A DNA stretch of 64,000 nucleotides from a virus (IMGVR_UViG_3300009709_000001:317336-381335), one strand, 5' to 3'. Counted from the first letter of the stretch, positions 705 through 63,709 are shown. Notes: a model not told the origin generated them from the letters alone. Numbers and translations: made by a program.

Positions 705-946
705 ACATCGCCAAAATCTTCAAGGGAAAAATCTTCCCAGAATTTCGGATAATACCGGTCCTCTTCTGCAAGATAATACGTTCCGTATTTCTTAATCAGA
801 TCAAGATCGGTAATTTCTTTGTTGTGGAGCTTTACACAATCGGCAAGGTACTCGTTGTGCTTGGCAATGATCGGTGCTTGGGCCTTGGCCGCGGCCGCGC
901 GGGTCGCATCATCATAGCGGCGAGTTTTACCAAATCGTTTGGGCAT
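668..946 (-). CDS. hypothetical protein (92 aa)
   Basis: Minus-strand ORF, short overlap with neighbours typical of phage operons; no domain recognised. Confidence 0.45.
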   Translation of the reverse strand: MPKRFGKTRRYDDATRAAAAKAQAPIIAKHNEYLADCVKLHNKEITDLDLIKKYGTYYLAEEDRYYPKFWEDFSLEDFGDVCPVHGSYKEQE

Positions 947-1637
947 GGTGTTCCCTTAAAACCGAGTTTGACCATTGATAATAGTAACCGACCGAACCTT
1001 TAAGTCCCATTTTCTTTAGTGCTAAATTCGAACTACCTGTTTCGATATACAAACCCAAGAACTCATCTTTTCTCTTATCTAATTCAGCAAATTTTTTGTT
1101 ATCCTTTTTTCTACACTCTTTGCCACAGGTAAATTTTTTTACAGAATGTAGGAATTCGCAACCACAAACCCGACAAGTTTGAAAAGAATTATCAAAATCG
1201 TTAACTCTACCCTTAAGCCATCTCTGATCTAAATAAATCTGAATTTCAGAAATCTTTATCTTTTTATTCTCTCTTAGATTTCTATTATAGATCCAACAAG
1301 TTCCAAATTGGGAATTATTTTCACCACTCGATGATTCTTTAATCGATGTCTTGGCCCACTGATAAATTCTTCCCGTAAATCTTACTTGCTCCGATGACGA
1401 ACATTTTGCCATCATAATAGCTGCCCAGGCCAGTTTAGCATTTAATGGGTTTGCCTTACTCAATAGAAGATGTGCAACATAGTGTTCTTTTGCGGTTAGT
1501 TCTACAAGATTATTTAGATTGTCGGTTCCGCCCATGCACCGCGGAATAATATGATGCCTTTCGCGATACACTTCGTCGGATAAAACTCTGTCTTTTGCTT
1601 TTTCTATGAGATTATTGTATACTTTTTGATAATCCAA
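927..1637 (-). CDS. HNH homing endonuclease
   Basis: Motif 'HHIIPRCMGGTDNLNNLVELTAKEHYVAHLLL' (HNH_3-type) near N-terminus; free-standing, like T4 mob/seg-type endonucleases; C-terminal Cys-rich segment. Confidence 0.85.
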   Translation of the reverse strand: MDYQKVYNNLIEKAKDRVLSDEVYRERHHIIPRCMGGTDNLNNLVELTAKEHYVAHLLLSKANPLNAKLAWAAIMMAKCSSSEQVRFTGRIYQWAKTSIKESSSGENNSQFGTCWIYNRNLRENKKIKISEIQIYLDQRWLKGRVNDFDNSFQTCRVCGCEFLHSVKKFTCGKECRKKDNKKFAELDKRKDEFLGLYIETGSSNLALKKMGLKGSVGYYYQWSNSVLREHHAQTIW

Positions 1638-1668
1638 AATACTTCTACTCCTATGATGGAAGTAGAAG

Positions 1669-1676
1669 TATTTATC
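1669..1676 (-). promoter_or_regulatory. T4-late-promoter-like GATAAATA box upstream of HNH gene
   Basis: Minus-strand GATAAATA (plus 'tatttatc') about 31 nt upstream of the ATG at 1637; the same motif recurs upstream of other endonuclease genes. Confidence 0.35.
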
Positions 1677-1681
1677 ATTTT

Positions 1682-1760
1682 TGGTACCCCGGACAGGATT
1701 CGAACCTGCATTGACTCCATTACACTTCTACGCTTTAGAAGAGCGCTGTGGTACCGAGGT
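1682..1760 (-). tRNA. tRNA-like gene with atypical D-arm region (possible tRNA-Arg UCU), CCA encoded
   Basis: On the minus strand there is a 7-bp acceptor stem ACCUCGG/CCGGGGU with one G-U pair, followed by U8-A9. The T-arm is GCAGG-UUCGAAU-CCUGU, with discriminator A and an encoded CCA. An internal 5-bp stem GCGCU/AGCGU carries a canonical 7-nt loop CUUCUAA (U33, anticodon UCU, A37). No canonical D-stem could be drawn, and the region between the anticodon arm and T-arm is 20 nt. It lies between two minus-strand genes. Confidence 0.5.
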
Positions 1761-1768
1761 CTGAATTA

Positions 1769-2179
1769 TTATCTAAAAGCGAGAATAACTTTCTGTTTGA
1801 TTTCCATGAGGCGCATCGGACTCATCTTTGCCCGATAACACACCTCCAGCATTTCGTATTCTCTATCGCGAATTGGGGCGATCTTATGTTCTTTCCCCGA
1901 AAGCTTCAGGAATGTTTCGTACTCGCCATCAAGGCGAATAAGCATTCCGGTTCCCTCGTATACATAGAACATCGCACCACCACGAATTAGGGTCGAATTC
2001 CCTTTTATATCATATTCGGTGATTTCGATGTCTACGTAATCCTTCAACAATTCGTAGCAACCTGCAGGAAGCTCCCGAACTGCCGAAGCACGAGCGAAGT
2101 AAATCATTGCATGAGCAGCGGGGCGACAGCCATGCACAACAGTTCGGTATTGGCACCGTAAGCAGTACGATACCACCAA
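1769..2179 (-). CDS. hypothetical protein (136 aa)
   Basis: Minus-strand ORF; no domain recognised. Confidence 0.5.
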   Translation of the reverse strand: MVVSYCLRCQYRTVVHGCRPAAHAMIYFARASAVRELPAGCYELLKDYVDIEITEYDIKGNSTLIRGGAMFYVYEGTGMLIRLDGEYETFLKLSGKEHKIAPIRDREYEMLEVCYRAKMSPMRLMEIKQKVILAFR

Positions 2180-3227: not shown

Positions 3228-3629
3228 TCATCTAAGCGCATTCGCATCAATCAACTCTTTCAGTTTCTTATGTTGTTGTTGATTCCAGCCCATCGTTGCT
3301 TCACTCTGCACAAATTTCTCTTCAATCCAGACGTTAGGAATTTCCCATAATGACCGATAATTACCGTCGGTAAATCCGTAACGGTAATCTTGTGGCATGC
3401 GACGAACATTCAACCAGCCACAGTGACCAGTGATTGAGGTATACCAGACATGAGCTTTGTCGTATCTCGGTACAGACATGACCACATGTCCACGTTGCCA
3501 ACCAGTAGTGGTTGTATCACATTGCACCTTAAGCATGCAATCAACAGAAGCAACAATCGGACTGGCCGGCAAGTACCATGCCCCGGGGACAATGTCCCAT
3601 AGCAGAAGAGACTTGTGTTTCTTGCTCAC
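3228..3629 (-). CDS. hypothetical protein (133 aa)
   Basis: Minus-strand ORF; Cys/His/Trp-rich; no confident family. Confidence 0.5.
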   Translation of the reverse strand: MSKKHKSLLLWDIVPGAWYLPASPIVASVDCMLKVQCDTTTTGWQRGHVVMSVPRYDKAHVWYTSITGHCGWLNVRRMPQDYRYGFTDGNYRSLWEIPNVWIEEKFVQSEATMGWNQQQHKKLKELIDANALR

Positions 3630-4294
3630 AGCTTCTCCAAAAGCCGGCCCAGCAATGCATCCATTTCTTCTTCGGTGTAGCGAAGGTATGCATTGGGCGT
3701 CGGAATTGTGTCGCCGAAATCCGTCTTAGTGAAGATGCGCGAACGTTCCTTCACTGTGGGAAACTCGAACACCATGAACGATGTGAGTTGCGTGGGATCG
3801 TTTTCCACGCTGTGAATTTCGGTGTGGCCCTGGAAGTGCATGTCACCGGGACCCAACACTTGCGTATCGTGTACGCGCAAGCCCCTCTTCGTAACCAGTT
3901 CCAGTTTGATCTTCTTTTCCTTGTTGTCCGGATGCAGTGCCGACGTGAGTGCGTAGATGTTGTAGTCATCCCGCTCGTTATCGAGCTTGTAGACAGTGTT
4001 CGTGATGGTGCCGTGGAGCACCAGAATCTGGCTGTCATACAGGTGGTTGTGGATGTTGACTGCGCGCGTCTGCAGTTCGTCTTGCGGCTCCACGATATAA
4101 AGCCGAATAGTGTGCTCCGGAGTGAACTCGAAGCACACGTAATTCAGACCGGGAAAATGGAAATTCTTGATGGACAGATCACAGATCCGTTTCAGATTGT
4201 GTTTGCGCTGGAGTGCAATCCATTGCTTCCAAAAAATCGTGGACTGGTTCATCACAAACTCCTGAACTAATAGGTTGCATGCATTGTAACGCAT
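3626..4294 (-). CDS. hypothetical protein (222 aa)
   Basis: Minus-strand ORF. His-rich segments (LHGTITN ... GDMHFQGHTEIH) might indicate a cupin/oxygenase-like fold but this is unverified. The antisense plus ORF 3578..4270 is treated as spurious. Confidence 0.55.
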   Translation of the reverse strand: MRYNACNLLVQEFVMNQSTIFWKQWIALQRKHNLKRICDLSIKNFHFPGLNYVCFEFTPEHTIRLYIVEPQDELQTRAVNIHNHLYDSQILVLHGTITNTVYKLDNERDDYNIYALTSALHPDNKEKKIKLELVTKRGLRVHDTQVLGPGDMHFQGHTEIHSVENDPTQLTSFMVFEFPTVKERSRIFTKTDFGDTIPTPNAYLRYTEEEMDALLGRLLEKL

Positions 4295-8549: not shown

Positions 8550-9346
8550 TTTTCTTGTTCTCTAACCAATTGTTCCATGTCGAGAATACGAGTTCGTGTA
8601 TTGCGACTACCTAATAAGATTAGGATACGCTTACCGACAGAGGAATTCATTATCATTACTAGGCATCCACCTGCTGCATTGGTAAAACCAGTCTTTGATA
8701 GGATGATGCTAAATTTCGAAGTAAGTGGATTGGTGTTATGAACACTAATCAACCTGCCTTGCGCCCTAATTTGTGCTGCCGGTAAACTTGACAATTCAGT
8801 AATAACCGAATTATTAGCAGCAACCAACAGCATCTTCAACAGATCCCGAGCAGTGCTTACGTTACCGTAATCAAGGCCTGTGGGTTCATAAAATTTCGTA
8901 TCGTGCATCTCCAACGTTGATGCACGTTCGTTCATCTTCTCTACACAGTTCTCGAGATTCAGGCAAAGAATTTGTGCAGCGAAATTATCAGATCTAACAA
9001 GAGCAAGTGTGAGTAATTCCTTTCGGGTGAGCTGTGTCACCTTACGCGGAATTGTCGAACTTACTTCCCTTGTCTTCAGAATGTTAAGCTCTTCATTTAG
9101 ATCCTGCTCGCTTGCAAGAATACCAATCATTAACTTACTGATTGATGCAATGGATCTAACCTCATTGCCATCCTTCTCGGTAAGGATATTACCGGAGTCA
9201 TCAGCAACAAGGTAGCTCTTCGCACTAAATGTAGGAATAGGTATAGGCTTGGGTTTCTTAGCCGCGTAAGCATTGCCAGTGGCAAGGGCCAGTGTGCAGG
9301 CGATTGTTACCAAGGCTCTCATGTTTATAGCATAACACGAGCGCAT
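8546..9346 (-). CDS. secreted D-alanyl-D-alanine carboxypeptidase / PBP-like serine peptidase (S11/class-A beta-lactamase fold)
   Basis: N-terminal signal peptide (ALVTIACTLALATGNAYA). Three active-site motifs are present in the canonical order: SxxK 'SISK', SxN 'SDN' and KTG 'KTG'. Confidence 0.7.
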   Translation of the reverse strand: MRSCYAINMRALVTIACTLALATGNAYAAKKPKPIPIPTFSAKSYLVADDSGNILTEKDGNEVRSIASISKLMIGILASEQDLNEELNILKTREVSSTIPRKVTQLTRKELLTLALVRSDNFAAQILCLNLENCVEKMNERASTLEMHDTKFYEPTGLDYGNVSTARDLLKMLLVAANNSVITELSSLPAAQIRAQGRLISVHNTNPLTSKFSIILSKTGFTNAAGGCLVMIMNSSVGKRILILLGSRNTRTRILDMEQLVREQEK

Positions 9347-11296: not shown

Positions 11297-12355
11297 ATGT
11301 CACAACACGTCTATATCCTTCATAATGAATCTAATGACTATGTCGTTAAAGAAATCTGCAGACGGACAATTGTAAATTCTAGGTATTTTTGCGAAAATCT
11401 AGAACTTACTGAGGATGATTTAATCTATCTGGCCGAACATAGCCCTTCAGATTATTTCTATGTTATTTCGACTAACTATGATCTCGATATTACGTTAAAT
11501 GCATTCGATTACAAGCCACCTGCCTGGGACGGACATTACCTGCATATTTGGCCTGGCGACAATATTCGACTATACAGCAAATACTCGGTACTAGAAAGTC
11601 CCGATAGATATACCGATAAACGATTGTTCGAGGGTAAAGCCGAATTAAAGAGGATGGATAATGTTGTGGCAAAGCATCCAACATTCGATATCATCTTCCT
11701 TAGCTACGACGAGTCATTCGCCGATCAGCATTTTCATGAACTCTCTAGCCGCTATCGTCGTGCCAAGAGAGTTCATGGTGTGAAAGGAATATACGAAGCG
11801 CATAAAGAGGCGGCACGCATTGCCGAAACAGATATGTTCTATGTTGTCGATGCAGATGCCAGAATTTTAGATAGCTTCGATTTTGATTGTTATCATCTGC
11901 ATAGTTTAGATAGGCAATCTGTTCATGTCTGGACATCAAGCAATCCAGTAAATCATCTAAAATACGGATATGGTGGTGTAAAACTATTTCCGACTAAAGC
12001 ACTCAGAAACTACACCGGGTCGCCGATTGATTTTACCACAAGTGTTTCGAATGGATTTAAAGTCATGGATGAAGTCAGTAACCTTACATATTTCAATACC
12101 GACCCATTCTCAACTTGGCGAAGTGCATTTAGAGAATGTACCAAACTTGCCGCTGGATTAATTCGTAATCAAGATCATACCGAAACAGAACACAGACTTA
12201 ATATCTGGTGTACTGTTGGCGATGGGGAGTATGGAGAGTTTGCGCTAATGGGCGCAAATGAGGGAAGGGATTTTGGAACGAAAAACGCTAATCATCCCGA
12301 TATGCTCAGGATGATTAACGACTATACTTGGCTGGAAGATCGATTTAGTTCTTAA
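11297..12355 (+). CDS. hypothetical protein (352 aa), possible nucleotide-sugar transferase
   Basis: One of the few plus-strand genes. It has a DxD-like 'FYVVDADARIL' segment, but no family could be assigned from sequence alone. An A/T-rich 'GAATAAATAAC' lies about 20 nt upstream. Confidence 0.55.
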   Translation: MSQHVYILHNESNDYVVKEICRRTIVNSRYFCENLELTEDDLIYLAEHSPSDYFYVISTNYDLDITLNAFDYKPPAWDGHYLHIWPGDNIRLYSKYSVLESPDRYTDKRLFEGKAELKRMDNVVAKHPTFDIIFLSYDESFADQHFHELSSRYRRAKRVHGVKGIYEAHKEAARIAETDMFYVVDADARILDSFDFDCYHLHSLDRQSVHVWTSSNPVNHLKYGYGGVKLFPTKALRNYTGSPIDFTTSVSNGFKVMDEVSNLTYFNTDPFSTWRSAFRECTKLAAGLIRNQDHTETEHRLNIWCTVGDGEYGEFALMGANEGRDFGTKNANHPDMLRMINDYTWLEDRFSS

Positions 12356-12687
12356 CAGTGAAAGCCGAGATATTTCTCAACTAACTCATTAATGTCTCTT
12401 TCGAGTTTTTCGGTATTGATGAATACCTTAATATCTCGCATCTTCTTGAATGTTTCTTCCATCACTTCCCAGTTCGCATCTTTGTTAACTGGAATTGGAT
12501 GGGTCAATTCGCTACCGCTAAGTTCAACAACATTACCATCATAATACTGCACCAAAATGTGTTCGATGTATTTTGCTGGAATTTCTTTAGCATCTACTTC
12601 TTTCACAATCCGGTCAAAGACTGATGGTTTAGCTATTCTGCTAATAGCCTTGTCGAGATTAAAGCTCGTTGTCCTTTTCGATGGCAT
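12352..12687 (-). CDS. hypothetical protein (111 aa)
   Basis: Minus-strand ORF. Confidence 0.45.
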   Translation of the reverse strand: MPSKRTTSFNLDKAISRIAKPSVFDRIVKEVDAKEIPAKYIEHILVQYYDGNVVELSGSELTHPIPVNKDANWEVMEETFKKMRDIKVFINTEKLERDINELVEKYLGFHC

Positions 12688-13223
12688 TAAATAATCTCCT
12701 TATTTTTCTTGGCATTTTTATTGCCAATTTTTGCTAGAGATAATTTCTTTCTATGCTCATCGGACATATTCTTGGTCGCTAACGACAATTTGTCTTTTTG
12801 GGCTTGAGACATAGGGGGCCTGGATTTACCGATTAAACTATTAGAAATATTCTTTTTAGTCTCCTCGGATCTTATAGCACCGAGATGTCTTTGAGAAATT
12901 TTTTCCTTCGATTCTCTAGTATGCTTATATCCGGATGTTCCTTCGACGCCGTTGGTAAAATTCCAAAGTGTTCCTGTTTCTAGATCACGACGACCAAAAA
13001 TTGATATTAAACATTCTTCGAGAAAGAATGAATGTTCTTCGTCCAGTGCATTTATAATTTCGATATTGACGGAAAATCCCGAATCTATAATCTTTTGTTT
13101 TCTAGATTCGACATTTTTATTTTTATCGACTTTAAATCTTCTACCTGTCCCCTTACCGACATAGAATGGCTCATTATTTCTTGTCGGATCTCTAAGAATA
13201 TAGGTAAAGAATTTCTTTGCCAT
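12687..13223 (-). CDS. GIY-YIG homing endonuclease (Seg-like) with NUMOD3-type repeats
   Basis: N-terminus 'FFTYILRDPTRNNEPFYVGKGTGRR' has the GIY-YIG signature. It is followed by K/S-rich 'xxHxxESKxKIS' NUMOD-like DNA-binding repeats. Confidence 0.85.
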   Translation of the reverse strand: MAKKFFTYILRDPTRNNEPFYVGKGTGRRFKVDKNKNVESRKQKIIDSGFSVNIEIINALDEEHSFFLEECLISIFGRRDLETGTLWNFTNGVEGTSGYKHTRESKEKISQRHLGAIRSEETKKNISNSLIGKSRPPMSQAQKDKLSLATKNMSDEHRKKLSLAKIGNKNAKKNKEII

Positions 13224-14902: not shown

Positions 14903-15472
14903 TTACAAAGAATACAGCAATGCAGTGATTATAGCGGAATCTTTGGCTTTCTGCAAGTCTAACCAATATTTCTTCCAATATAAATCAACTTCTTCGGGAG
15001 TTTTGAATGGCCGTTGTTTATAGGTGGTATTTCTAAGAGCTTCAGCCCTTTTAGCAATATGCTCGGGTGTTTGTTTACGACCGCGATTAGCATTACCTAT
15101 CTTTTTCTTGTGTTGTTCGGATTTTGGCTTGTCTTTGTGAAGTTTTGAGATTTCTTCAGCCACACGATTTCTTAACCATCCGTACATTTTATTCCTTTTT
15201 ACTTTTCCATCTTTGGACATTCTAACCAATGCGAAAATAAGATATGGATGTTCCGGATATATACGAACTAATAACCTATGTGCAAGCCAATGTTCTTCGG
15301 CTGTTAGTTTAACGATATTTTCGGGATCATCTGTGCCACCTATGCATCGTGGAATTATATGATGCTTTTCGCAATATCCGATAATTTCACGTGATTTGGC
15401 ACATTCGATGAGTTTATTGTATGCTTCTTGATATTTCATAACTTGAGATAATACCAGTGGATCTACATCCAA
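14903..15472 (-). CDS. HNH homing endonuclease
   Basis: 'HHIIPRCIGGTDDPENIVKLTAEEHWLAHRLL' HNH motif; paralogous to the 927..1637 product. Confidence 0.85.
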   Translation of the reverse strand: MDVDPLVLSQVMKYQEAYNKLIECAKSREIIGYCEKHHIIPRCIGGTDDPENIVKLTAEEHWLAHRLLVRIYPEHPYLIFALVRMSKDGKVKRNKMYGWLRNRVAEEISKLHKDKPKSEQHKKKIGNANRGRKQTPEHIAKRAEALRNTTYKQRPFKTPEEVDLYWKKYWLDLQKAKDSAIITALLYSL

Positions 15473-15696: not shown

Positions 15697-16305
15697 TTAG
15701 TCGGAATCCTTATTACTGGGTTCCCGAAGGCGTTGCCTGGGTACATTCACCACATGGATGAGATGCTCGGGCCAATCCACATAGTATGCCCATTCCGGTT
15801 CACGAATTTGAAGTGGCATCGTTTTCTTCTTTGCCAGTATCTCGTAGTAAGTCGGAACATGCGGCATCTTCTTAGGAACAATCTTTGCATTGTCGCCCTT
15901 GGTGCTGTTACAGTCCTTGCAAGCGGTGCAAATATTTTTCCAGTTGGATTTACCACCCATAGACGCAGGGACTACGTGGTCCAGCGTGAGCTCATTCACT
16001 TTGGCTTTTCCGCGGTTTTCCTTGCAATGCTTAGTGATTTGCAGCTGGCACGTGTAGTCGTCACGCAGGTAAATGTTGCCACGTGAATACTTCACCTTCT
16101 TATCCCATGAAACGTGCTTGACCATCATGACAATAGAAGGTACCTTGATCTCAAGCTTTTGAGACTTGATAACCCAGTCGTCGTATTCCTTAACAACCCT
16201 AACCTTACCATTATAGAGCATGTGCAATGCTCGTGCGGCAGGAATCACTGAGAAAGGACTCAGTGACATCGGTTGGCCGTCGGCATTAAGCAGTAATGTA
16301 TCCAT
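15697..16305 (-). CDS. HNH-family endonuclease
   Basis: 'LDHVVPASMGGKSNWKNICTACKDCNSTKGD' is an HNH core (DH..P, N, zinc-binding C..C). Confidence 0.75.
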   Translation of the reverse strand: MDTLLLNADGQPMSLSPFSVIPAARALHMLYNGKVRVVKEYDDWVIKSQKLEIKVPSIVMMVKHVSWDKKVKYSRGNIYLRDDYTCQLQITKHCKENRGKAKVNELTLDHVVPASMGGKSNWKNICTACKDCNSTKGDNAKIVPKKMPHVPTYYEILAKKKTMPLQIREPEWAYYVDWPEHLIHVVNVPRQRLREPSNKDSD

Positions 16306-18256: not shown

Positions 18257-19456
18257 TTACCTATTGTTTTGGGGCGAATGGTTGTCCGGCTCGTACCAAG
18301 CAGTCATACCAAACGGTGCGACCAGCCGTCGTTGCGTATCGCCGTGGATGAGGAACAGAGTGTCGCAGTAATTCTCGTCACCCCAGCTACCGCAAGGATA
18401 GCCGTCAGTCATCACGATGAAGCGTTCCGGCATCACATCATTTTCCTTCATGTAATCCCAGTTCACTGTGAAGTCGGTACCGCCACCACCCTTCAGATCG
18501 TAGGTATCGATGTCATCGATATTTTCCGGCGTAAAGATCTGCGGGTTGTAAACGCGAGTGTCGAATGTCCAAACGGTAAGCTTGAAGTCCATGAACTGTT
18601 CCATGATGCCCTTGACTTCGCCGAGCAAGTCACGCAGCATGTCTTCAGACATAGAACCCGATGCGTCAATTGCCACAGCGGCCTCGACACGTACATCTTC
18701 CTTCGTACCCGGCAGGTAGATGCCGCTCGACTGAGACTTACGCGAGCAGCGACTCCAGGTGAAGTCATTGCGAATCATCGACTGAATCTTCATGTTCAGG
18801 ATTTCACGCCAATCCATCTGCGGATTGGTCAAATCCTTCAGCATGCGCTTCACACCTGCAGGCACATTGCCAGCGCCAGCTGCCTTCGAAGCTTGCATCA
18901 CGGCAGCACGGATCTCGTCGCCCAGGATACGGCGTTCTTCCTCTGTCATCGGCTCACCCTTGCCATCGCCTGGCTCCAAGTGGATGTCGAATTCGGGGAA
19001 CTTCTGGCTCGGGTCCTTCATTAGGGCTTCGTACACTTCTTCAGCGAACATACCCTTGAACTTGGGATCGAAGCAGGCAGTCACACCAGATGTCTTGGGG
19101 TCGGGGATCTTACCGACACTGTTCTCGTGGAGTTCCCAGTTGATGACGTAGTCGGCAGCAGCGTTCCAAGCCTTCGGCTTACGCGAACCACGACGACCCA
19201 TGTGGTCATAGACGCAGTGTTCCACTTCGTGCGCAACCAAGAAAATCGTTTCTTGTTTGTTCAACTTCAGAATGAAGTTGCGATTGAAGTAGAAACTGCG
19301 ACCATCGGTGGCAGCAGTGGGGCACCAGCCATCGGGATCGTCGGTAGCGTCCTTCAGAATCAAGCGAGTGGCCAACGTGCCCCAGAACGGCTGTTGCAGA
19401 AGAAGAGAGATGCGTGCTCGCGTCAGCTGTTCAAATGCTTTTTCCTGATCGGTCAT
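18257..19456 (-). CDS. VWA-domain protein with N-terminal HExxH metallopeptidase-like domain (DUF2201-type MoxR partner)
   Basis: 'VAHEVEHCVYDH' HExxH motif in the N-terminal half; MIDAS motif 'AIDASGSMS' (DxSxS) in the C-terminal half; GC-rich. Confidence 0.8.
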   Translation of the reverse strand: MTDQEKAFEQLTRARISLLLQQPFWGTLATRLILKDATDDPDGWCPTAATDGRSFYFNRNFILKLNKQETIFLVAHEVEHCVYDHMGRRGSRKPKAWNAAADYVINWELHENSVGKIPDPKTSGVTACFDPKFKGMFAEEVYEALMKDPSQKFPEFDIHLEPGDGKGEPMTEEERRILGDEIRAAVMQASKAAGAGNVPAGVKRMLKDLTNPQMDWREILNMKIQSMIRNDFTWSRCSRKSQSSGIYLPGTKEDVRVEAAVAIDASGSMSEDMLRDLLGEVKGIMEQFMDFKLTVWTFDTRVYNPQIFTPENIDDIDTYDLKGGGGTDFTVNWDYMKENDVMPERFIVMTDGYPCGSWGDENYCDTLFLIHGDTQRRLVAPFGMTAWYEPDNHSPQNNR

Positions 19457-20418: not shown

Positions 20419-21405
20419 ATGGTAAATGTATTCTATAAGGAATTTCTAAAGATGAAGACACACAAATGCGAAAATATGACTTGCCAGAATAAATCCGAAA
20501 AGGATAAGTACGGCAATTATAAAAGATACTGCTCGGATGAATGCAAAAAGGTATCGAGATTATTAAAATTCAAAGAAACATATCAACATAAAGATATGGG
20601 TGCAATATTACAAAAACGAAAAGATACATTATTGTCTAAGTATGGTGTCGAGAACGCAGCATGTATATCTGAGGTCAAAGAAAAACTGCGTATAACCACT
20701 ACTAATACCGCGCAAATCCGCACAATAAAAACTAAAGAGACAAACTTAGCACGTTACGGCGTTGAGAGTACAAATTCCCTTGAGTCTGTTCAAGAGAAGA
20801 AAAAGCAAACCTTACTTGAAAGGTACGGCGTAGATCATCAACTTAAAATACCAGGAGTAGCTGCCGAAGTTTCGAAGAAGAATTCGGAAAATGCTAAGGA
20901 GCGACTAGTAAAGTCGAAGAAGACCAATCTTGAAAGATATGGATGTGAAAATCCATCTGCAAACGAAGATATCAAACTCAAAAGAACTGCAACTATGATT
21001 GAACGGTTCGGTGTAGAGAATGCATCGCAGAATGCTAAGGTTCAGTCGAAAAAAGTCAGGGCCGGCTTTAAGACTAAAAAATATACTTTCCCGTCCGGAA
21101 GAATAGACCATGTCCAAGGATATGAACCTTTGGCACTCAGTCAACTTTTACAGGAGGGATATCAAGAAAATGACATTATTACGCTTGATGAATTGATGCC
21201 GGAACTATGGTATCATGAATCGGATGGATCTAAGCGCAGATATTTCCCAGATATTTATATCCCGAAAGAAAATCTATTAATCGAAGTTAAATCCGAATAT
21301 ACTTATCGCGGATTTATTGGTTGGCTAATAACCAACCAATTAAAAGAGCAATGTGCCAGAGATGCTGGATTTAATTATCGACTAATGATAATGGTAAAGA
21401 AATAA
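20419..21405 (+). CDS. putative PD-(D/E)xK-type homing endonuclease with seven N-terminal ~22-aa 'RYGVE' repeats
   Basis: Plus-strand insert between minus-strand genes. It carries tandem repeats (LLSKYGVENAA..., NLARYGVESTN..., LLERYGVDHQL..., NLERYGCENPS..., MIERFGVENAS...). The C-terminus 'FPDIYIPKENLLIEVKSEY' fits a PD...(E)VK nuclease core. 'CATAAATA' lies 2 nt upstream of the ATG. Confidence 0.6.
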   Translation: MVNVFYKEFLKMKTHKCENMTCQNKSEKDKYGNYKRYCSDECKKVSRLLKFKETYQHKDMGAILQKRKDTLLSKYGVENAACISEVKEKLRITTTNTAQIRTIKTKETNLARYGVESTNSLESVQEKKKQTLLERYGVDHQLKIPGVAAEVSKKNSENAKERLVKSKKTNLERYGCENPSANEDIKLKRTATMIERFGVENASQNAKVQSKKVRAGFKTKKYTFPSGRIDHVQGYEPLALSQLLQEGYQENDIITLDELMPELWYHESDGSKRRYFPDIYIPKENLLIEVKSEYTYRGFIGWLITNQLKEQCARDAGFNYRLMIMVKK

Positions 21406-25545: not shown

Positions 25546-25585
25546 GGTTTTCCTTTCAGAACAAAGTTTTAACTGACAAATGCAT

Positions 25586-46908: not shown

Positions 46909-47592
46909 TTGATAAATATATTTATGATCAATATTCATTTTTATAAAACATTTTTAGGTAACAAATACTCGAAATGGTATTTGTCTATTATTGTTGCTGC
47001 ACAATCGAAAAATCGTAAAAAATCCGAAGATTGCTATTACGAGCGTCATCATATTATACCCAAATCTATAAATCCTGAGATTTCGAACTTAAAATTAAAT
47101 CCCTGGAATGGAGTATTACTAACCGCGAAAGAGCATTTCATTTGTCATCTTCTTCTTACAAAAATGGCTATAGGAAAAGATAAGAATAAGATGATTTATG
47201 CATTATGGAATCTACGTAATCAGAAAACTAAATCTCAGGACCAGAGATTTACCTCAAATCTATACAACGTATACAAGAAACAGATGCAAGAAGCATTATC
47301 TGTAGATCGAAAAGGTAAATCTCTGGAAGAACGATACGGGATTACTCGTGCATCGGAGATTAAAGCATCCTACCGCACAAGAATCCCTCGTGGGAAAGTT
47401 TCCAATGAAGAAAAGGGTAAACTTTCTGAAAATATGAAAACTCTTCATCAAACCCGGCCTTGGAAAAGATTTATGCAAACCAACGGTGTTCTTCCAAAAA
47501 ATACCTGCCCGCATTGTAATAAAACAATGGATGTCGGTAATTATGGAAGATATCACGGGGACAAATGTAAATTACGCGAGATTAGCAAATAG
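46909..47592 (+). CDS. HNH homing endonuclease with C-terminal Zn finger (probable true start ATG 46924)
   Basis: 'CYYERHHIIPKSINPEISNLKLNPWNGVLLTAKEHFICHLLL'. The C-terminus is 'CPHCNKTMDVGNYGRYHGDKCK'. The ORF track starts at TTG 46909, but GATAAATA at 46911-46918 sits 5 nt before the ATG at 46924. Confidence 0.85.
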   Translation: MINIFMINIHFYKTFLGNKYSKWYLSIIVAAQSKNRKKSEDCYYERHHIIPKSINPEISNLKLNPWNGVLLTAKEHFICHLLLTKMAIGKDKNKMIYALWNLRNQKTKSQDQRFTSNLYNVYKKQMQEALSVDRKGKSLEERYGITRASEIKASYRTRIPRGKVSNEEKGKLSENMKTLHQTRPWKRFMQTNGVLPKNTCPHCNKTMDVGNYGRYHGDKCKLREISK

Positions 47593-48453
47593 ATGCATTT
47601 GCATTTGCATTCTGTAACCGTGCTCCATACAATATCTACCCACGTATTCGTGATTTTCTTGTATCTTCTGCATATTTAATAATCCCGGTTCGAAGAAATT
47701 AATAACTTCATCAACAGTTGAGCGCTCATCCATTGTGATATTGCCTTTTTCGTTGTGTAGAATTTTAATCTTCTGTGGAAGGCTGTTATACACATTCATC
47801 GGGCTAAGATATACTTCCTTAGTAGGATTATTTCTTTTCCACTCATGTGCCCATTCCGGAATTTGATTGTATGGGCTATCTGTTTCGGCACTAACGACAA
47901 ACTTCAAGCAATCTGCTCTTTCCAAAATTTGTTTGGTAGGAGAAAGATACTTAGTAGCCACACCATTCTTTTCAGCACATTTCGGGCTGCAAACGAGTGT
48001 AACACCTTCAGGAATAGGAAGATTTACAGTACCATTGCTTTCGATTTGTACTGCTCTGAAGTTAGGAACTTGTCTTTCTAGGAATGCTGTAAGGTTTGAT
48101 TGTAGTGTGGGTTCACCACCTGTAATAACCATAACAATGTTCGGGAAACTATATGCCTTCTTATCTGGATGTGCCCAAATAGGTGCTACACCACCTTTGT
48201 CTTCCCAATATTTATAGATCGTGTCACCTACCTTCTTTTCCAGTTCTTCATAAGTCATCCAATCTCCATCATCGAAGAATGTATCACAGAAAGAACAAGC
48301 TAGGTTACATTTTGTCAATCTAATGAATAGTGCAGGAGAACCGGCGTATGGACCCTCGCCTTGAAGTGTAAAGAACATACTTGTAACAAATAAACTATTC
48401 TCTGGTGCATCTTTGAAAAATTTCTGGCCAATAATTTGGTTAGTTCCGAACAT
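47572..48453 (-). CDS. queE: 7-carboxy-7-deazaguanine synthase QueE (radical SAM)
   Basis: 'FFTLQGEGPYAGSPALFIRLTKCNLACSFCDT' has the QueE C-x3-C-x2-C-DT cluster. 'VITGGEP' and 'QIESNG' are also present. The C-terminus 'MQMHLFANLA' resembles the E. coli QueE C-terminus. Confidence 0.9.
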   Translation of the reverse strand: MFGTNQIIGQKFFKDAPENSLFVTSMFFTLQGEGPYAGSPALFIRLTKCNLACSFCDTFFDDGDWMTYEELEKKVGDTIYKYWEDKGGVAPIWAHPDKKAYSFPNIVMVITGGEPTLQSNLTAFLERQVPNFRAVQIESNGTVNLPIPEGVTLVCSPKCAEKNGVATKYLSPTKQILERADCLKFVVSAETDSPYNQIPEWAHEWKRNNPTKEVYLSPMNVYNSLPQKIKILHNEKGNITMDERSTVDEVINFFEPGLLNMQKIQENHEYVGRYCMEHGYRMQMQMHLFANLA

Positions 48454-48985
48454 CTATTAATTCCTTCATTTCGTTTAGTGATAGAAATAACTTTTCACAG
48501 CTAAAACCATCTTTCTTATATTTGCTATTTTCTAAACACCAGCTTCTTATTGTTGTGTGATAAACACCGTAGAATTTGGCAGCGTGTTCTAGGGATGGAA
48601 ATTTTCCGTCTAGTGTGGTTACCAACATTTTCCATCCTTTTGCATCATCTCTGTCAATTTTGCCGAGAGAACACTCAACTTCTGGAACAACATATTCTCT
48701 AGAAAGGTAATTTATTGCACTTTGTAGAAGAGAAATATCATCCTTGAATAACCCGAGTGCGGTGTTGCAGTCAGTGCATAGTAGACCTCTGATTTTTCCA
48801 GATACATGATTATGATCAACTGCTAGATCTCTTCCGCAATAGTCGACTTGCTGGCAGATGCAACAGACACCATTTTGATCGGATTTTATTGCTTCATATT
48901 GATCGTAGTTTATTCCAAACTTCAAAAGAAGCCCATTTTTCTTTCTTCTTTTTTTAGATCTTTCCGGTGTATTAATTATTCCCAT
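48440..48985 (-). CDS. endonuclease VII-like Holliday-junction resolvase (T4 gp49 family)
   Basis: 'VCCICQQ...LAVDHNHVSGKIRGLLCTDCNTALG' matches the T4 EndoVII zinc/H-N-H core; an extra C-terminal domain follows. Confidence 0.88.
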   Translation of the reverse strand: MGIINTPERSKKRRKKNGLLLKFGINYDQYEAIKSDQNGVCCICQQVDYCGRDLAVDHNHVSGKIRGLLCTDCNTALGLFKDDISLLQSAINYLSREYVVPEVECSLGKIDRDDAKGWKMLVTTLDGKFPSLEHAAKFYGVYHTTIRSWCLENSKYKKDGFSCEKLFLSLNEMKELIDVRN

Positions 48986-58199: not shown

Positions 58200-61151
58200 T
58201 CAAAACGCGCTGAAGTCGAATAATGTTTCAAGGTGTGCGTGTTCTTTATTAGTTCTCGAAAGATCCCAATTCAAAACACCTAGAAGATTCTTAACCTTCT
58301 GATCGACAATCGAACCCATCATTTCATCACTGTCAAATGGGAGGTTCAAGAACCAATCTGGTAAATGGGCTTCATCAACCGGATATGCAATGCTACTCAA
58401 ATTGTTTTCGGCATTGATCTTGAGTTTACAAACAATAATCTTCTGTCCGTCAATAATCCTCATTGCATGCTGGTCACGATGAATTTCTTTCAATCGATTC
58501 CACGCAAGGCTTGCTGTAACGTGTCCTGGTACATGCAAGTTACCGACTGTAATACCTTTTGCTTTCTGAATACCTGCAAGTTCAATCTTATCACGATAGT
58601 GAGTTAGCTTGTTAACTGCTCGCGGAGTTCCTTGTTTCCAAGGCTTCAAATCTTCAAACTGTTCTTTAAACAGGCGAATTTTCTCAATAACGGCATTTTC
58701 GCCCTTGTCTAGTAGAGTATCAAGTAAGATCTCAGACAAGAATTTTTGCACGAATTTAGGTGTATCTGCACGCTTCAAATCGAGACCCATAGCCTTGACT
58801 TTACCCGGCTTTCCGTCGACATCATATCTAATGCCGTCCTTATCGTACATCAAGCAAGCATATCTCTTCTTAACAATCCAAATACCTGTTTCGGACACAG
58901 TTTCACGAGACGATGCAATAACACCAGTCGAACGCTTTTGTGGCACATTCAATTTCTTGTTCAAGAACTCGGGGAATGTAGCAGAAACTGCTTTTGCCAA
59001 ATCATTGTAAAGATCGACAATGCTTTCCTTTGTCCACATAATATCACCACGTGCAATTTCTTCACGTAGAATTGGATATGCAGAGAAATAGCACGAGTCC
59101 GTATCACCATAAACAATTGCCTTGCCGTAATGATTATATTCACCAGCAATCATTTCATTTGTCTGAGCTGCCATGTGCTTCGTGATTGTACGACCAGTAA
59201 GCGTTGTGGATTGTCCTAGACGTTGATCGAAGAATCGACTACCTGCATTCAACAAAGCGCCGTATGCCGAGTTCAAGTTAATCTTCTTAACGAGCTGACG
59301 TTTGTCCCAGAAGCCAACAATACGCTTCAAATCCTTTTGATCGCGATGAATTGCTTTACCGTCCTTGACCATAAGGTTGTGTTGATTCATGTACTGAACA
59401 ACTCTCTTCTTATGACCTTCGGCGATAATTTCCTTCAGTTTCTTCGGCTTGTACGATTCCGATTCTGAATAGGGATTAGCCTTCAATTCTACATCACTGA
59501 TATCATCATTTGTGAACAATTCTGCCGGAACTAGAGTACCTTCAATTTTGGAGTTATCCTGAATGTCTTCATAGTTGGTCATAATACCTTGAAGCGTCTT
59601 ACGCTCGGTATACCAACGTGTCAGAATTCCCGGAATAATACCGTCAATATCTGTTCTAAAGATTGTACCGTTTGCACTGATACACCATGGCTGTCCACTC
59701 TTGAAAATCAAGTCATGCAATTCCTTGCCAGTGACTTCAAATTCAGAGCCGTCTTCCATATCAAGAGTTAGCTTATTGGCAATATCTTGATTATAAAAGT
59801 CTTCCATTTCTAGAACGTTGAATCTATCGTTCCACCAGTTAGCGAATGTGTATTTCGCACCTTTCTTTTCCCAAATGCCGATTGCATCGTTTGTACGATC
59901 TAGACGAATCTGTCCAACAATTGTTTCTGGACTCATATTCAGTGCTCTAAGAACCGACGGATACAGAGACTTCATGTCAGTTGAACCAATCCAGCGATGG
60001 AATCCCTTTCTTGGAGTTGCAACCCAGCCACCTGCAGCACGATTTGCTTCTTCGTCGCTACCACGCTTCTTATCTGGACAGATAAGTCCGCGATTGTGTG
60101 CTTCGACAAGTACAGCCTGGTCAGTAACTGCAACCGCACCCATTGTGGTCTGAATTAGAACACAGTTGGCATGTGCAATCGAATTTGCAAGATCCATGAA
60201 CTGGAGCTTCTTATCTAATCGATCAAGAAGTCGCGTATCCTGGATGTTATACTGTAAGAACTGCTCAAAGTCGTCATTGTAGAGTTCGTCAAGCGTACCT
60301 TCGTATTGTACCTTAGTTTCGTTAAGTTCAATTTCCGAGATAGCATTCAACGCATAACTATGTCTTTCTTCATAGTTGTATTTCTTGTAAAGCTGAAGAT
60401 AATCAACGTGAACACGACCAATAAGGTCGTAAGTTGGTTGAGTCTTGCCGCCGCGTTCAAATTCACGAACTTTAGGTTGCTGGTCCCACAGACAAAGTCT
60501 GCGAGCTTCATGCTTACCAAGAACACGCTTGATACGATTTACAACATAAGGAATATCGTATGCTTCACTATTCCATCCACTAAGAATGTCTGCATCTTCG
60601 ACAACGTCAATGAATGCATTAAGCATGTCTGCTTCGTTCTTGAATAGAACTACATTACCTACCTTATTTGCAATTTCATTAGCTTCATCCCAGGTCAATG
60701 TCTCTGGTGGCAATGCCAAGCAGATAATTTCATCTAGCCATTGCAGATGAACAGAAATTGAAGTGATGTAATTTAGTGCTTCGCTTGCTTCTGACCAGCC
60801 CGACTCTTTATCAAAGCTGGTTTCAATGTCGAAGAATGCAATGTTAAGGGAAGGAGCATCTTGCCCCTGATAATTGTGTTCAATACAGCGGAAGATTGGA
60901 TCTACATCCGATTCCCATGTTTTCGTATTGCTTGCCACAGTTTTCATTAGCTTCTGCTTTTCAGCATAGGTGCGTGGCGCTACCTTTTTTACGGAATTAC
61001 CGTAGATGGTCTTATTAAGACCCTTCGGGTCATTAATGAAGAAGTGATAGTCAGGTTGGAATTCCCGGTAAACTCTCTTACCGTTAACACGTTCAACAAT
61101 TTTGATTACTTCGCTATCACCGCCTCTTTTGAACAAGGCGTCAATATACAT
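58200..61151 (-). CDS. family B DNA polymerase (T4 gp43-like) with 3'-5' exonuclease domain
   Basis: Exo I motif 'IAFFDIETSF', polymerase motif C 'VYGDTDSCYF', motif A-like 'MKSLYPSV'; 983 aa. Confidence 0.95.
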   Translation of the reverse strand: MYIDALFKRGGDSEVIKIVERVNGKRVYREFQPDYHFFINDPKGLNKTIYGNSVKKVAPRTYAEKQKLMKTVASNTKTWESDVDPIFRCIEHNYQGQDAPSLNIAFFDIETSFDKESGWSEASEALNYITSISVHLQWLDEIICLALPPETLTWDEANEIANKVGNVVLFKNEADMLNAFIDVVEDADILSGWNSEAYDIPYVVNRIKRVLGKHEARRLCLWDQQPKVREFERGGKTQPTYDLIGRVHVDYLQLYKKYNYEERHSYALNAISEIELNETKVQYEGTLDELYNDDFEQFLQYNIQDTRLLDRLDKKLQFMDLANSIAHANCVLIQTTMGAVAVTDQAVLVEAHNRGLICPDKKRGSDEEANRAAGGWVATPRKGFHRWIGSTDMKSLYPSVLRALNMSPETIVGQIRLDRTNDAIGIWEKKGAKYTFANWWNDRFNVLEMEDFYNQDIANKLTLDMEDGSEFEVTGKELHDLIFKSGQPWCISANGTIFRTDIDGIIPGILTRWYTERKTLQGIMTNYEDIQDNSKIEGTLVPAELFTNDDISDVELKANPYSESESYKPKKLKEIIAEGHKKRVVQYMNQHNLMVKDGKAIHRDQKDLKRIVGFWDKRQLVKKINLNSAYGALLNAGSRFFDQRLGQSTTLTGRTITKHMAAQTNEMIAGEYNHYGKAIVYGDTDSCYFSAYPILREEIARGDIMWTKESIVDLYNDLAKAVSATFPEFLNKKLNVPQKRSTGVIASSRETVSETGIWIVKKRYACLMYDKDGIRYDVDGKPGKVKAMGLDLKRADTPKFVQKFLSEILLDTLLDKGENAVIEKIRLFKEQFEDLKPWKQGTPRAVNKLTHYRDKIELAGIQKAKGITVGNLHVPGHVTASLAWNRLKEIHRDQHAMRIIDGQKIIVCKLKINAENNLSSIAYPVDEAHLPDWFLNLPFDSDEMMGSIVDQKVKNLLGVLNWDLSRTNKEHAHLETLFDFSAF

Positions 61152-61402
61152 TAGCCGAGACCTCCAGCCTTGTATAGTTCTTCAAGTTCGTCCCAATCTT
61201 CACGGGCGTCATTCATTCGACCCTTTTGAACGATCTTGATTAGCTTATTCAACTGTGCTGGTTTGACTTCTAGTTCCTCGGCGATTGCCTTCACTGTTTC
61301 ATTGAGACCTTGCTTCAGGTCTTCGCATTCCTGAAGAACTGATACACCATCTTGAACGAGTTGTTTCAGACGTGTGATATTTTCTTGGCTAAGTTTCGCC
61401 AT
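61151..61402 (-). CDS. hypothetical protein (83 aa)
   Basis: Minus-strand ORF immediately upstream of the pol gene; helical, charged. Confidence 0.45.
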
Positions 61403-62000
61403 TTTTATTTTTCTCCTGCTCTAATTTTCTTTTAGCCCATCGCTCTTTCATCGATGCACTCTGTTTCATTTTTGCTTCAGGCGTCTGTGGTTGTCCCTTA
61501 TTATAAGGCACTCTACCAGACATATTCTTACTCATTGATTCTTTTGCGGATTCTGTGTGTTTGCGACCCAACATCGGGTGCTGCAATTTAGATCTTGCTT
61601 CGGTTGCTTTTTCATAAACCCAGTCGGGTTGTCTTTTGCCGAAAAATGAGCTATTTTCACCAGAGTGTTGCTGTCTTAATTTTTCTCTAATTTCCGGTGT
61701 TTTAGCATCAGACATTTTCTGTTTGGTTTCAGCAGTATGTTTTCTTCCCGAGGCGCCTTCACCACCGTCGGTTAAATTTCTAAGAATACCTGTTCCGATA
61801 TCTTTTCTGCCATACCAACGAATATATCTTCGTTCTAGTGCAAATGCACCTATTTCTGTAAGATTAGACTCGAGTATAATAATCCGAAATTTATCCGGTG
61901 GGACATTTACAGTATGTCGACCGAGAAATCTTTTACCTGATCCTTTACCGATATAATAAGGAGTATTATCTACTCTAAGATAAGCGTAAACATAGAACAT
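61389..62000 (-). CDS. GIY-YIG homing endonuclease with NUMOD3 repeats
   Basis: '[25 protein letters not shown]' is a GIY-YIG core, followed by '[15 protein letters not shown]' NUMOD3-like repeats. Confidence 0.85.
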
Positions 62001-62079
62001 AAATTACTTACCATTTCAGTAAGTATACTCTAGACAACATTGAAAGTCAAGAGTTTCAATGCAAGTCAAAAAAGGGAGA

Positions 62080-62670
62080 TCAGAATCTTCCGTAGGCATC
62101 CCCGGTAATAGGATCGTTGGTTCCCTTATACATATGGGGATCATAGCCGTGAATTGGAGACAATAAACCCTTGGCTTGATTGTCATCACGTACATCACCG
62201 GTAAATCTGTACATTTGGTCAGGCATTACTCGCTTGAACCATTCGACAATTAGCGGTCTAACATCTTGACCGGGCTCTGATTCTTCGATTGACTTGAACT
62301 GATCTGTTAATTCATCGTCATCAATTAGGCCTTCAATAAAAATCGGTGCTATCACAGCAGGGATTGGTTTCTCAAGCATTTTCTTTGCAAGCTCAAAATC
62401 ATCATTTGAGAGTGGCAAACGATGTACTGCTTCAGATAAGGTATTTGACATGCACATTTCCGGAACTAGGCCTTTAAGTTCACGATAATCTGCACGAAGC
62501 TTATCTTTTAGGAATTCTCTGCCGTTAGGAGATGTTCCTGGGTGCATAATCTTATCAACATATCGATCCATGCGTCCTTGGAGCATGTCAATACGCATGG
62601 CTGTTTGCGGCGAGAGGCTACGATCACTCATAGCCCCTTTCGGTAATAATAGTTCTAGAATTCGCATCAT
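62080..62670 (-). CDS. hypothetical protein (196 aa)
   Basis: Minus-strand ORF. Confidence 0.5.
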   Translation of the reverse strand: MMRILELLLPKGAMSDRSLSPQTAMRIDMLQGRMDRYVDKIMHPGTSPNGREFLKDKLRADYRELKGLVPEMCMSNTLSEAVHRLPLSNDDFELAKKMLEKPIPAVIAPIFIEGLIDDDELTDQFKSIEESEPGQDVRPLIVEWFKRVMPDQMYRFTGDVRDDNQAKGLLSPIHGYDPHMYKGTNDPITGDAYGRF

Positions 62671-62696
62671 GTATTTATCACATGATGCGTCGGTTA

Positions 62697-63101
62697 TTAA
62701 CCGATAGCGAATTCTTCCGCTACGCTTGTAGGAATAAGATCGACATCAAATTCCTTAGCAAATTCAACCAACATTGGAAGAACAAAAACAGTTCCCGGGA
62801 TCGCAAGCAAGAATGCAAAGCGAGTAGAAACCATCAATTCATGTGCTATCTTGTTGGCCTTGGCAATTTCATTTACCGATGCATCACCGGTAGTTGCCTT
62901 CTGATAAATCTGCCACATTTCCTTGCTGTTCTTGGATTCAGCTTGGAAAACGGCCTTAACCTTTTCAAGCAATGCCTTCACATCAGTTTCGTTCTTTGGA
63001 AACTGAGTAAGGTAGCTCGAAGTTACTTTGAAAAATTCTTGTGGGGTCTTTGGAATGGGTCTGAACATATAGTGTCTCCTGTTTATTATTGTGCATTGCA
63101 C
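62697..63101 (-). CDS. hypothetical protein (134 aa)
   Basis: Minus-strand ORF. Confidence 0.45.
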   Translation of the reverse strand: MQCTIINRRHYMFRPIPKTPQEFFKVTSSYLTQFPKNETDVKALLEKVKAVFQAESKNSKEMWQIYQKATTGDASVNEIAKANKIAHELMVSTRFAFLLAIPGTVFVLPMLVEFAKEFDVDLIPTSVAEEFAIG

Positions 63102-63169
63102 GATATTTGTAATGTAGCATATTTACCTCTTGCAGTGCAACATTTCCTTATTACGCGGTAAATATTTGT

Positions 63170-63709
63170 ATGAATACTATCAAATATTGTGCATTACCCG
63201 AATGTGGTAAACCTTTCACTAATTGGAGAAGTTCTTGTTGTTGCAAAAGCCATCAGGGAATCTTTTCGGCTAAAAGTCGACATGGAACACTTGGTAAGCC
63301 TAACATATCAAAAGAGGAATTGAAGATAAAGGCAAAAGATAGAAAAATTCTAAATCAAGAATTTATAGGCCCAAAGAAACCAAAAGAAAAAAGAGTCTAT
63401 ACCAAGAAAGTAAAAACATCTTCCGAATATATAACAATCGAAGAAAGAAAGGCTAAATGGGCAGCTTATATTGCAAATAGGAAGAAGAAAAGGGATCAGT
63501 CAATGCCAGCATGGGCTGACAAAGATAAGATTTTAGAATTCTATATAGAAGCAAGAAAACTTACAAAAGAAACTGGAATACTTCATGAGGTTGATCATAT
63601 TATCCCTTCTAATCATAAGTTAGTCTGTGGTTTACACAATGAGTTTAATCTTCAGATATTAACCAAAGATGAAAATCGTAAGAAAAGTAATAAATTCAAA
63701 ATAGAATAA
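63170..63709 (+). CDS. HNH endonuclease with N-terminal Cys cluster
   Basis: 'ILHEVDHIIPSNHKLVCGLHNEFNLQILTKDENRKK' (HNH: DH..P, N, N); N-terminus CALPECGKPF...CCCKSH; 'GTAAATAT' 4 nt upstream of the ATG. Confidence 0.8.
   Translation: MNTIKYCALPECGKPFTNWRSSCCCKSHQGIFSAKSRHGTLGKPNISKEELKIKAKDRKILNQEFIGPKKPKEKRVYTKKVKTSSEYITIEERKAKWAAYIANRKKKRDQSMPAWADKDKILEFYIEARKLTKETGILHEVDHIIPSNHKLVCGLHNEFNLQILTKDENRKKSNKFKIE

Follow-up and report, generated by a model that had tools for sequence, protein, structure and literature searches.

We analyzed a 64,000-nt stretch of viral DNA (IMGVR_UViG_3300009709_000001:317336-381335; hereafter the window), in which ten, possibly eleven, genes appear to encode free-standing homing endonucleases. 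Positions are those of the whole stretch, and open reading frames (ORFs) of related loci are given in locus coordinates. The source is an uncultured jumbo phage of the T4 superfamily, known from a metagenome, with a genome of ~385 kb; a protein identical to one of the window lies on a contig of 385,394 bp. Its gp43-type family B DNA polymerase (PolB; 983 aa, 58200-61151, minus strand) finds its best cultured-phage matches in the jumbo phages Sinorhizobium phage Phosso, Agrobacterium phage Atu_ph07 and Klebsiella phage RaK2, at 39-43% identity. Comparing 12 kb with 50,697 phage records by Megablast gave no match, and cultured relatives were seen at the protein level only. Exact-protein look-ups for strain-level variants found none, returning either the same genome from two assemblies (Logan SRR5829574 and a JGI metagenome) or nothing, and a metagenome scan with gene g13288 gave no closer relatives among the matches listed. 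The ~120 genes of the window are packed nearly all on the minus strand.

Nuclease families in the window

An earlier note on this DNA had listed eleven nuclease genes, all of which were recovered, in place and uninterrupted:

927-1637, minus strand: HNH (mob-like) free-standing endonuclease gene with a TTG start (PHROG 655, E-value = 5.5e-44; intact HHIIP...N...EH motif)
12687-13223, minus strand: GIY-YIG and NUMOD3 free-standing homing endonuclease gene (PHROG 314, NUMOD3, GIY-YIG profile)
14903-15439, minus strand: HNH (mob-like) homing endonuclease gene (PHROG 655, E-value = 1e-51; PF01844 above cut-off)
15697-16305, minus strand: conserved classical HNH nuclease gene (PF01844 and PF14279 above cut-off)
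20419-21405, plus strand: DUF7487 endonuclease gene, antisense cassette with an intrinsic terminator (C-terminal PD-(D/E)xK domain)
24129-24881, plus strand: seg-like GIY-YIG, NUMOD3 and C-terminal zinc-finger gene, antisense cassette (PHROG 314; NUMOD3, E-value = 7e-14)
28365-29192, plus strand: HNH (mob-like) endonuclease gene, antisense (PHROG 655, E-value = 1e-34), its 3' end overlapping the macro-domain gene
36881-37558, minus strand: GIY-YIG, NUMOD3 and zinc-finger endonuclease gene (PHROG 314, NUMOD3, GIY-YIG profile), its stop overlapping the RtcB start
46909-47592, plus strand: HNH (mob-like) and zinc-finger endonuclease gene, antisense (PHROG 655, E-value = 1.6e-37), likely ATG start at 46924
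61389-62000, minus strand: GIY-YIG and NUMOD3 endonuclease gene (PHROG 314 and 15526), upstream of the dsbA-like gene and PolB
63170-63709, plus strand: HNH nuclease gene with an N-terminal Cys-rich region, antisense (D-H...N...N motif aligned to Cas9 HNH, E-value = 0.006)

The previous tally of five GIY-YIG and five HNH genes has to be corrected to four and six, respectively, with the single PD-(D/E)xK gene unchanged. Degenerate or pseudogenised motifs, which the note had raised as a possible objection to its own reading, were not encountered, as every one of the eleven ORFs is complete and has its catalytic residues intact. The list was incomplete, having overlooked a twelfth nuclease gene of the Endonuclease_7 type at 48440-48985, which is treated below. 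An Rfam scan of the window gave no intron family (group I or II) at the gathering score, and the flanking ORFs are complete and collinear with those of relatives; the genes were rightly called intron-less, and since the window holds no group I intron they are regarded as free-standing.

Concerning the mob-like HNH genes, 927, 14903, 28365 and 46909 all match PHROG 655, annotated as 'homing endonuclease' (E-values of 1e-34 to 1e-52), and share an invariant E-x-HHIIP...N...EH...H motif. Their profile aligns with the McrA HNH (E-value = 0.004). PF01844, above cut-off for 14903 and 15697, is borderline for 28365 and absent for 927 and 46909. The likely ATG start of 14903 lies at 15439, within an ORF that extends to 15472. 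The sixth HNH gene, 63170, has a weak match to the HNH family PHROG 1271.

The four GIY-YIG genes (12687, 24129, 36881 and 61389) match both PHROG 314 and the Pfam NUMOD3 model. A GIY-YIG profile from 12687, 36881, 61389 and relatives matches solved domains (9u75, E-value = 6e-8; UvrC, E-value = 2e-3), and residues Y7, Y20, G22, R28, E72 and N91 (the Y...Y-x-G, Arg, Glu, Asn core) are invariant in this alignment. Gene 24129, which aligns poorly with the other three, shows by eye a seg-like 'WLYI...QYFGKT'. A C-terminal CPxC...(W/Y)H-x-D-x-CK zinc finger is common to two GIY-YIG genes and one HNH gene, pointing to the module shuffling that is typical of homing enzymes. Single-sequence PDB searches with 36881 and 20419 gave nothing significant, and profiles or a structure model were required.

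The product of 20419 combines an N-terminal zinc-ribbon-like Cys cluster (seen by eye), five helical YGV-x-N repeats and a C-terminal domain with the restriction-endonuclease-like PD-(D/E)xK fold and invariant E, D and E-x-K residues. It has no significant sequence match to any solved structure. The fold and its invariant residues are shared with TnsA, Vsr and I-Bth0305I, the last being a proven homing endonuclease with a Vsr-like core, whereas the five repeats and the Cys cluster are not found in those proteins. DUF7487 is catalogued as of unknown function, and a literature search turned up no article naming it. The family has more than 1,000 homologues and is widespread, occurring in phages and among giant-virus structural matches.

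Occupancy of the sites in related phages

With the polymerase and five other conserved proteins as anchors, more than 250 loci were retrieved from IMG/VR. About 138 of them come from close relatives (PolB 75-86% identical) that are collinear with the window over ~4,300-64,000, and all window proteins were mapped onto the relatives' loci to score each site. For the g8546 anchor, synteny with relatives stops near position 4300, and synteny was absent in all three loci recovered with the g3626 anchor.

The alignment with related phages that the earlier note had called for delimited endonuclease-minus alleles and insertion sites for nine genes (12687, 14903, 20419, 24129, 28365, 36881, 46909, 61389 and 63170). 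Their predicted mobility is borne out by sites that are empty in relatives; it did not hold for 15697, the only gene among those compared that relatives carry at the same site throughout. At the empty sites just 20-300 bp separate the same flanking genes, and in DNA alignments the breaks of homology fall within the intergenic spacers. The suggestion that flanking genes could mark insertion hotspots also found support: in some relatives six of the nine sites hold an endonuclease that is 37-67% identical, in either orientation at one of them. The neighbours named in that suggestion were likewise recognized as a QueE-like radical SAM gene, an AAA/MoxR-like ATPase gene with a DUF2201 VWA-like gene, and a macro-domain gene; PolB, also named, sits one gene away from the endonuclease.

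Specifically, the site of 12687 (g13288/g12352) is empty, at 55-143 bp, in 41/41 loci, and DNA homology with relatives is lost at 13309 and regained at 12672. That of 14903 (g15697/g14517) is empty in 32 of 37 loci; four have HNH genes of ~37-40% identity and the fifth a long gap without a match. Some of the window's endonucleases have their nearest homologues at other sites; 14903, for instance, is best matched by the gene that locus L182 carries at the 46909 site. The site of 24129, bounded by g24922 and g23746 in the window and by g29123 and g23746 in relatives, is empty (67 bp) in L080 and L276, and is occupied in the same orientation by a 51% identical gene in L081 and L252, with a clean indel of 698 vs 80 bp between L081 and L080. 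For 28365 (macro-domain gene g29123/g28057) the empty site measures 23-34 bp in L079, L164 and L082. The 36881 site (g37660/RtcB in the window, g38673/RtcB in relatives) is empty (21-24 bp) in L172 and L169 and filled by a 67% identical gene in L159. Gene 46909 overlaps the QueE-like gene convergently; its site (QueE-like gene/g46244) is empty (118 bp) in L168 and L170 and holds a 53% identical gene in L182, with DNA homology lost at 47586 and regained at 46882. At this same site, next to the QueE-like gene, L162 has a relic of a 46909-type HNH gene (8651-8857, minus strand) that is reduced to the C-terminal zinc finger (74% identity over 35 aa). The 61389 site (g62080/g61151) is empty (77-92 bp) in 10 loci and holds GIY-YIG genes of 40-53% identity in seven, and the 63170 site (g63710/g62697) is empty (97-176 bp) in 18/21 loci. 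Finally, the site of 20419, between the CobS/MoxR-like AAA gene and the DUF2201 VWA-like gene, is empty (96 bp) in four close loci and dozens of distant ones; it is occupied in the window orientation in L262 and in the opposite orientation in L084, L078 and L270.

The hotspot upstream of dsbA-PolB exists in three states, holding a GIY-YIG gene, a Vsr-like gene or none, between flanks that are 97-99% identical. The flanks of L005 and L006 are 99.2% identical and those of L033 and L034 96.9%, and in each pair the 61389 site holds a GIY-YIG gene in one member and an unrelated, Vsr-like nuclease ORF in the other, so that one nuclease family replaces another. Clean endonuclease-sized indels distinguish L081 from L080 and L168 from L170 (92-96% identical), and between relatives of 92-99% identity only clean indels were seen. 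On a tree of 40 distinct PolB sequences, six tips carry a GIY-YIG gene at the 61389 site; they are scattered and take 6 Fitch steps, equal to random placement. Empty, filled and replaced sites together with scattered occupancy argue for mobility and for true insertion hotspots, and they support a recent turnover of endonucleases within the clade.

The Vsr-like nuclease ORFs upstream of dsbA-PolB (e.g., L005 356-1228, L010 3768-4640, L033 8921-9688) have a ...GD(F/Y)WH(G/C)NP motif and N-terminal repeats; there are 17 unique ones in the relatives and none in the window. In some relatives PolB itself is split right after the YGDTDS motif (L057 ~12055-12695; L058 2798-4441; L059 3641-5284; L063 6235-6966). 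The first piece reads on and then stops, and the second opens with a segment ending ...LLHN before S/C; in L058 and L059 a 341-aa ORF lies between the halves. The QueE-like radical SAM gene has in L164 (6942-7777) and L166 (7154-7935) an in-frame insert of ~260-280 aa ending ...VVHN|C, which looks like a contiguous intein. Group I introns were considered as the cause of the split PolB and QueE-like genes in relatives, and Rfam found none; the splits look like inteins or split inteins.

Concerning DUF7487, the presence of such genes at one site in either orientation is comparative support for mobility and suggests that the family behaves as a free-standing PD-(D/E)xK homing endonuclease, a modestly new element. 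Two large DUF7487-like ORFs (669 and 500 aa) lie in tandem between the AAA and VWA-like genes of L078 (11452-13458 and 14280-15779), on the same strand as their neighbours. As a tentative proposal, which we would put at rather less than even odds, DUF7487 may be an uncharacterised PD-(D/E)xK homing family whose helical YGV-x-N array reads the DNA target; more broadly, the clade may be an arena in which GIY-YIG, HNH, Vsr-like and DUF7487 nucleases contest the same intergenic hotspots, as autonomous, ATAAATA-driven cassettes in either orientation.

Three further nuclease genes of the window stand apart from the nine. The first one, 15697 (g16381/g14517), occupies the same site and strand in 34/34 informative loci with 57-63% identity; as it also has a core-like composition (GC 0.47, GC3 0.56), it is evidently a conserved resident core HNH gene and not a mobile one. 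For the second, 927 (g668/g1769), no homologues of these neighbours were found in relatives; it lies directly downstream of a tRNA-like element. The third is the overlooked Endonuclease_7 gene. The two features not listed so far are:

1685-1760, minus strand: tRNA-like element (Rfam tRNA, 35.2 bits; gathering score 29), directly preceding the 927 gene
48440-48985, minus strand: Endo VII-type (His-Me finger) nuclease gene (PF02945, E-value = 7e-22; intact Endo VII motif)

The tRNA-like element was not called by ARAGORN; its D arm is truncated and its variable arm long, and the CCA end is encoded. Gene 48440 is missing in 12 relative loci, where g49048 and g47572 sit 2-13 bp apart, and its homologues are found at other sites and strands in L250-L254 and L163. 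It shares the Endo VII motif and an insertion-like behaviour with the Endo VII-motif homing endonucleases of the F-CphI/DHHRN family; its catalytic domain, however, is N-terminal as in the T4 gp49 resolvase, and not C-terminal as in F-CphI (PMC6083498). It may thus be a candidate mobile nuclease of the F-CphI kind or the phage's relocated junction resolvase. If it is mobile, the QueE-like gene would have endonuclease genes on both sides.

Strand, composition and upstream boxes

The figures on strand, composition, boxes and load refer to a set of ten genes, namely the eleven listed endonuclease genes less 15697. That endonuclease genes mark nearly every strand switch had been overstated, although they do make up five of the eight plus-strand genes, as had been counted, once the eighth gene is corrected to 42715-43041. 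The long ORF 62682-63161 (plus strand) is probably a shadow of the conserved minus-strand ORF 62697-63101 (49% vs 36% identity to relatives). Endonucleases account for 5/8 plus-strand genes against 5/112 minus-strand genes (Fisher p = 6.6e-5); the ten are split 5:5 by strand, and only 3 of the ~110 other genes are on the plus strand (the conserved non-nuclease genes 11297, 42060 and 42715). Antisense orientation is also seen in 22 of the 63 unique endonuclease ORFs of the relatives. The simplest reading would be insertion without orientation preference, which in a one-stranded gene array leaves most of the rare strand switches to endonucleases; the genes do not 'mark' strand switches in a functional sense.

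The ten genes are foreign and AT-rich in composition, with GC of 0.32-0.39 and GC3 of 0.23-0.34, where core genes average 0.43 in both (Mann-Whitney p = 6e-7). GC3 is 0.32 for 927, 0.30 for 14903, 0.25 for 24129 and 63170, 0.23 for 28365 and 0.26 for 36881, and it is 0.30 for 48440. Several core genes are GC-rich (18257-19456, 21484-22710, 24922-27966, 31365-32612 and 3626-4294; GC 0.51-0.64, GC3 up to 0.86, region average ~0.43). Among them are the CobS/MoxR-like AAA gene, the DUF2201 VWA-like gene and a further AAA ATPase gene; in relatives, too, the homologues of these GC-rich genes exceed their own genomes in GC. A 392-aa ORF (25642-26820, minus strand; GC 0.635) is missing from relatives, where its two neighbours adjoin; by eye its N-terminus resembles a signal peptide and is accompanied by a single hydrophobic stretch and a long tail rich in Pro, Ser and Ala. 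That the GC-rich block 24922-28287, between two antisense endonuclease genes, is cargo moved by them is speculation, because relatives carry parts of the block without the endonucleases.

The ATAAATA motif occurs 23 times in the window, 15 times within 43 nt upstream of a start on the same strand. It precedes, within 38 nt, 7/10 endonuclease genes against 8/110 others (p = 1e-5), and in the relatives it lies upstream of 21/57 endonuclease ORFs against 273/2761 others. Examples are at 20410, 24098, 28353, 37570, 42048 and 46912, with two spacing classes of 8-12 nt and 24-43 nt. The box lies 38 nt upstream of 927, and a GATAAATA box lies 12 nt upstream of 28365. The exact T4 late promoter TATAAATA is not enriched in the window (5 found vs 2.75 expected); it lies 28 nt upstream of 12687 and 25 nt upstream of 48440. 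ATAAATA is a putative promoter only, because several genes have their ATG just 2-5 nt behind it, a poor fit for a promoter -10 element; at the short spacing such an element would imply leaderless transcripts. Terminator-like hairpins end two antisense copies, 20419 and 24129.

Alternative explanations and known systems

We consider it probable (about 0.8) that ten or perhaps eleven free-standing homing endonuclease genes in the window, of the T4 seg and mob types plus one DUF7487 gene, have spread by intronless homing. Each would occupy the spacer between two genes that are conserved neighbours in related phages. During mixed infection the enzyme would cut the endonuclease-free allele near its own insertion site, and repair from the endonuclease-carrying genome would copy the gene, together with some flanking DNA, into the cut genome. 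The antisense copies would be self-contained cassettes of a late-promoter-like ATAAATA box, an ORF and, in two, a terminator. Cleavage specificity, homing and co-conversion are what we infer here because the anatomy and the population-level polymorphism fit those of T4 seg and mob genes.

Several observations weigh against this interpretation. The loci derive from overlapping metagenomic contigs, so the occupancy counts are not independent, and the nearest relatives, just 75-86% identical in PolB, are too distant to date insertions in this lineage. Endonucleases at common sites are more diverged (37-67% identity) than their flanks, which could mean old insertions rather than recent homing. Concerning family assignment, none of the four GIY-YIG genes reached the Pfam GIY-YIG model PF01541 at an E-value of 0.01, the assignment of 24129 is weaker and draws on PHROG 314 (E-value = 4e-12), NUMOD3 and motifs read by eye, and 63170 has weak family matches only and no homologue in any relative locus.

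The genes might instead be nuclease 'morons' or inter-phage weapons, gained by illegitimate or homologous recombination and kept for excluding co-infecting relatives or marking recombination boundaries, without site-specific self-copying. Presence/absence data cannot tell homing from other modes of gain; in other phages nuclease genes sit at genetic-exchange boundaries (PMC10448857), and the marker exclusion caused by the seg and mob genes of T4 already amounts to competition (PMC2988022). Yet different nuclease families, or none, turn up at identical intergenic positions, the flanks being preserved to within tens of bases, and such recurrent same-site swaps are a signature of break-and-repair insertion; the combination of nuclease, NUMOD3 and zinc finger also matches characterised homing enzymes. 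We therefore regard this explanation as unlikely. No better a chance is given to the view that most copies are inactive relics, kept for their promoters or their overlap with neighbours, so that the density would reflect past activity. It draws on the truncated relic in L162, on several genes that overlap or abut a neighbour (RtcB for 36881, the QueE-like gene for 46909, the macro-domain gene for 28365), and on the high divergence of homologues at common sites, but it is at odds with eleven full-length ORFs bearing intact catalytic residues and with the recent turnover in related genomes. Less likely still are fixed, domesticated phage genes for replication, recombination, packaging or host DNA degradation, vertically inherited and immobile: this holds for 15697, and it may hold for 48440 in view of an N-terminal Endo VII domain arranged as in the T4 gp49 resolvase. 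Against it, relatives have an empty site for nine of the eleven genes, filled sites are dispersed over the PolB tree, clean indels separate genomes that are otherwise nearly identical, and the genes are foreign and AT-rich.

Homing by free-standing genes is already well known; modestly new are the evidence on DUF7487, the high antisense share of apparently autonomous cassettes and a hotspot contested by nuclease families. The window offers a second, independent case of a T4-sized endonuclease burden (~11% of sequence), in a distant, uncultured jumbo relative. Its nine precisely bounded pairs of filled and empty alleles, with one dsbA-PolB hotspot found in three states in near-identical genomes, are ready substrates for mapping the cleavage sites of new GIY-YIG, HNH and DUF7487 enzymes. 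For one-stranded phage gene arrays, isolated AT-rich antisense ORFs predict mobile nuclease genes well, while a nuclease motif alone is a poor predictor of mobility, 15697 having the motif and being resident.

Concerning density, the ten genes cover 6,900 bp, or 10.8%, at 0.16 per kb, figures that describe the 64-kb window. With the same detection models, 63 unique ORFs were counted in ~1.44 Mb of non-redundant sequence from the relatives, or ~0.04 per kb on average; this is a lower bound as other families may be missed. One locus of 10.5 kb, L159, exceeds the window in local density. The T4 genome measures ~169 kb, and on that size the count per kb of the window is ~1.8 times the T4 genome average.

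Among jumbo phages, the Jug phages of the gut likewise have many stand-alone HNH, PDDEXK and GIY-YIG endonucleases, and some members have a split DNA polymerase and other split genes, as do relatives of the window (PMC12880540). They also bear introns and inteins, whereas the window has no group I intron, and they have about five endonuclease genes per 360-402-kb genome (computed from counts in PMC12880540) against ten in 64 kb here. No evidence was found that places this phage in the Jug clade. The closest likeness is to the T4 seg (GIY-YIG) and mob (HNH) genes, which belong to the same two catalytic families, have modular C-terminal NUMOD3 or zinc-finger domains as here, and are likewise intergenic between conserved genes, present or absent among relatives and provided with late-promoter-like boxes, at a similar load of ~11%. 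The 15 endonuclease genes of T4 amount to 11% of its coding potential, a load that the 2010 review of Edgell, Gibb & Belfort considered an oddity unmatched among T-even-like phages (PMC2988022). T4 segB lies in a tRNA cluster (PMC2330249), and 927 adjoins a tRNA-like element. Unlike T4, the present host is an uncultured ~385-kb jumbo phage, with a PolB only 39-43% identical to those of cultured phages; and half of its copies are antisense to their neighbours, an orientation for which the review of T4 singles out segD (PMC2988022).

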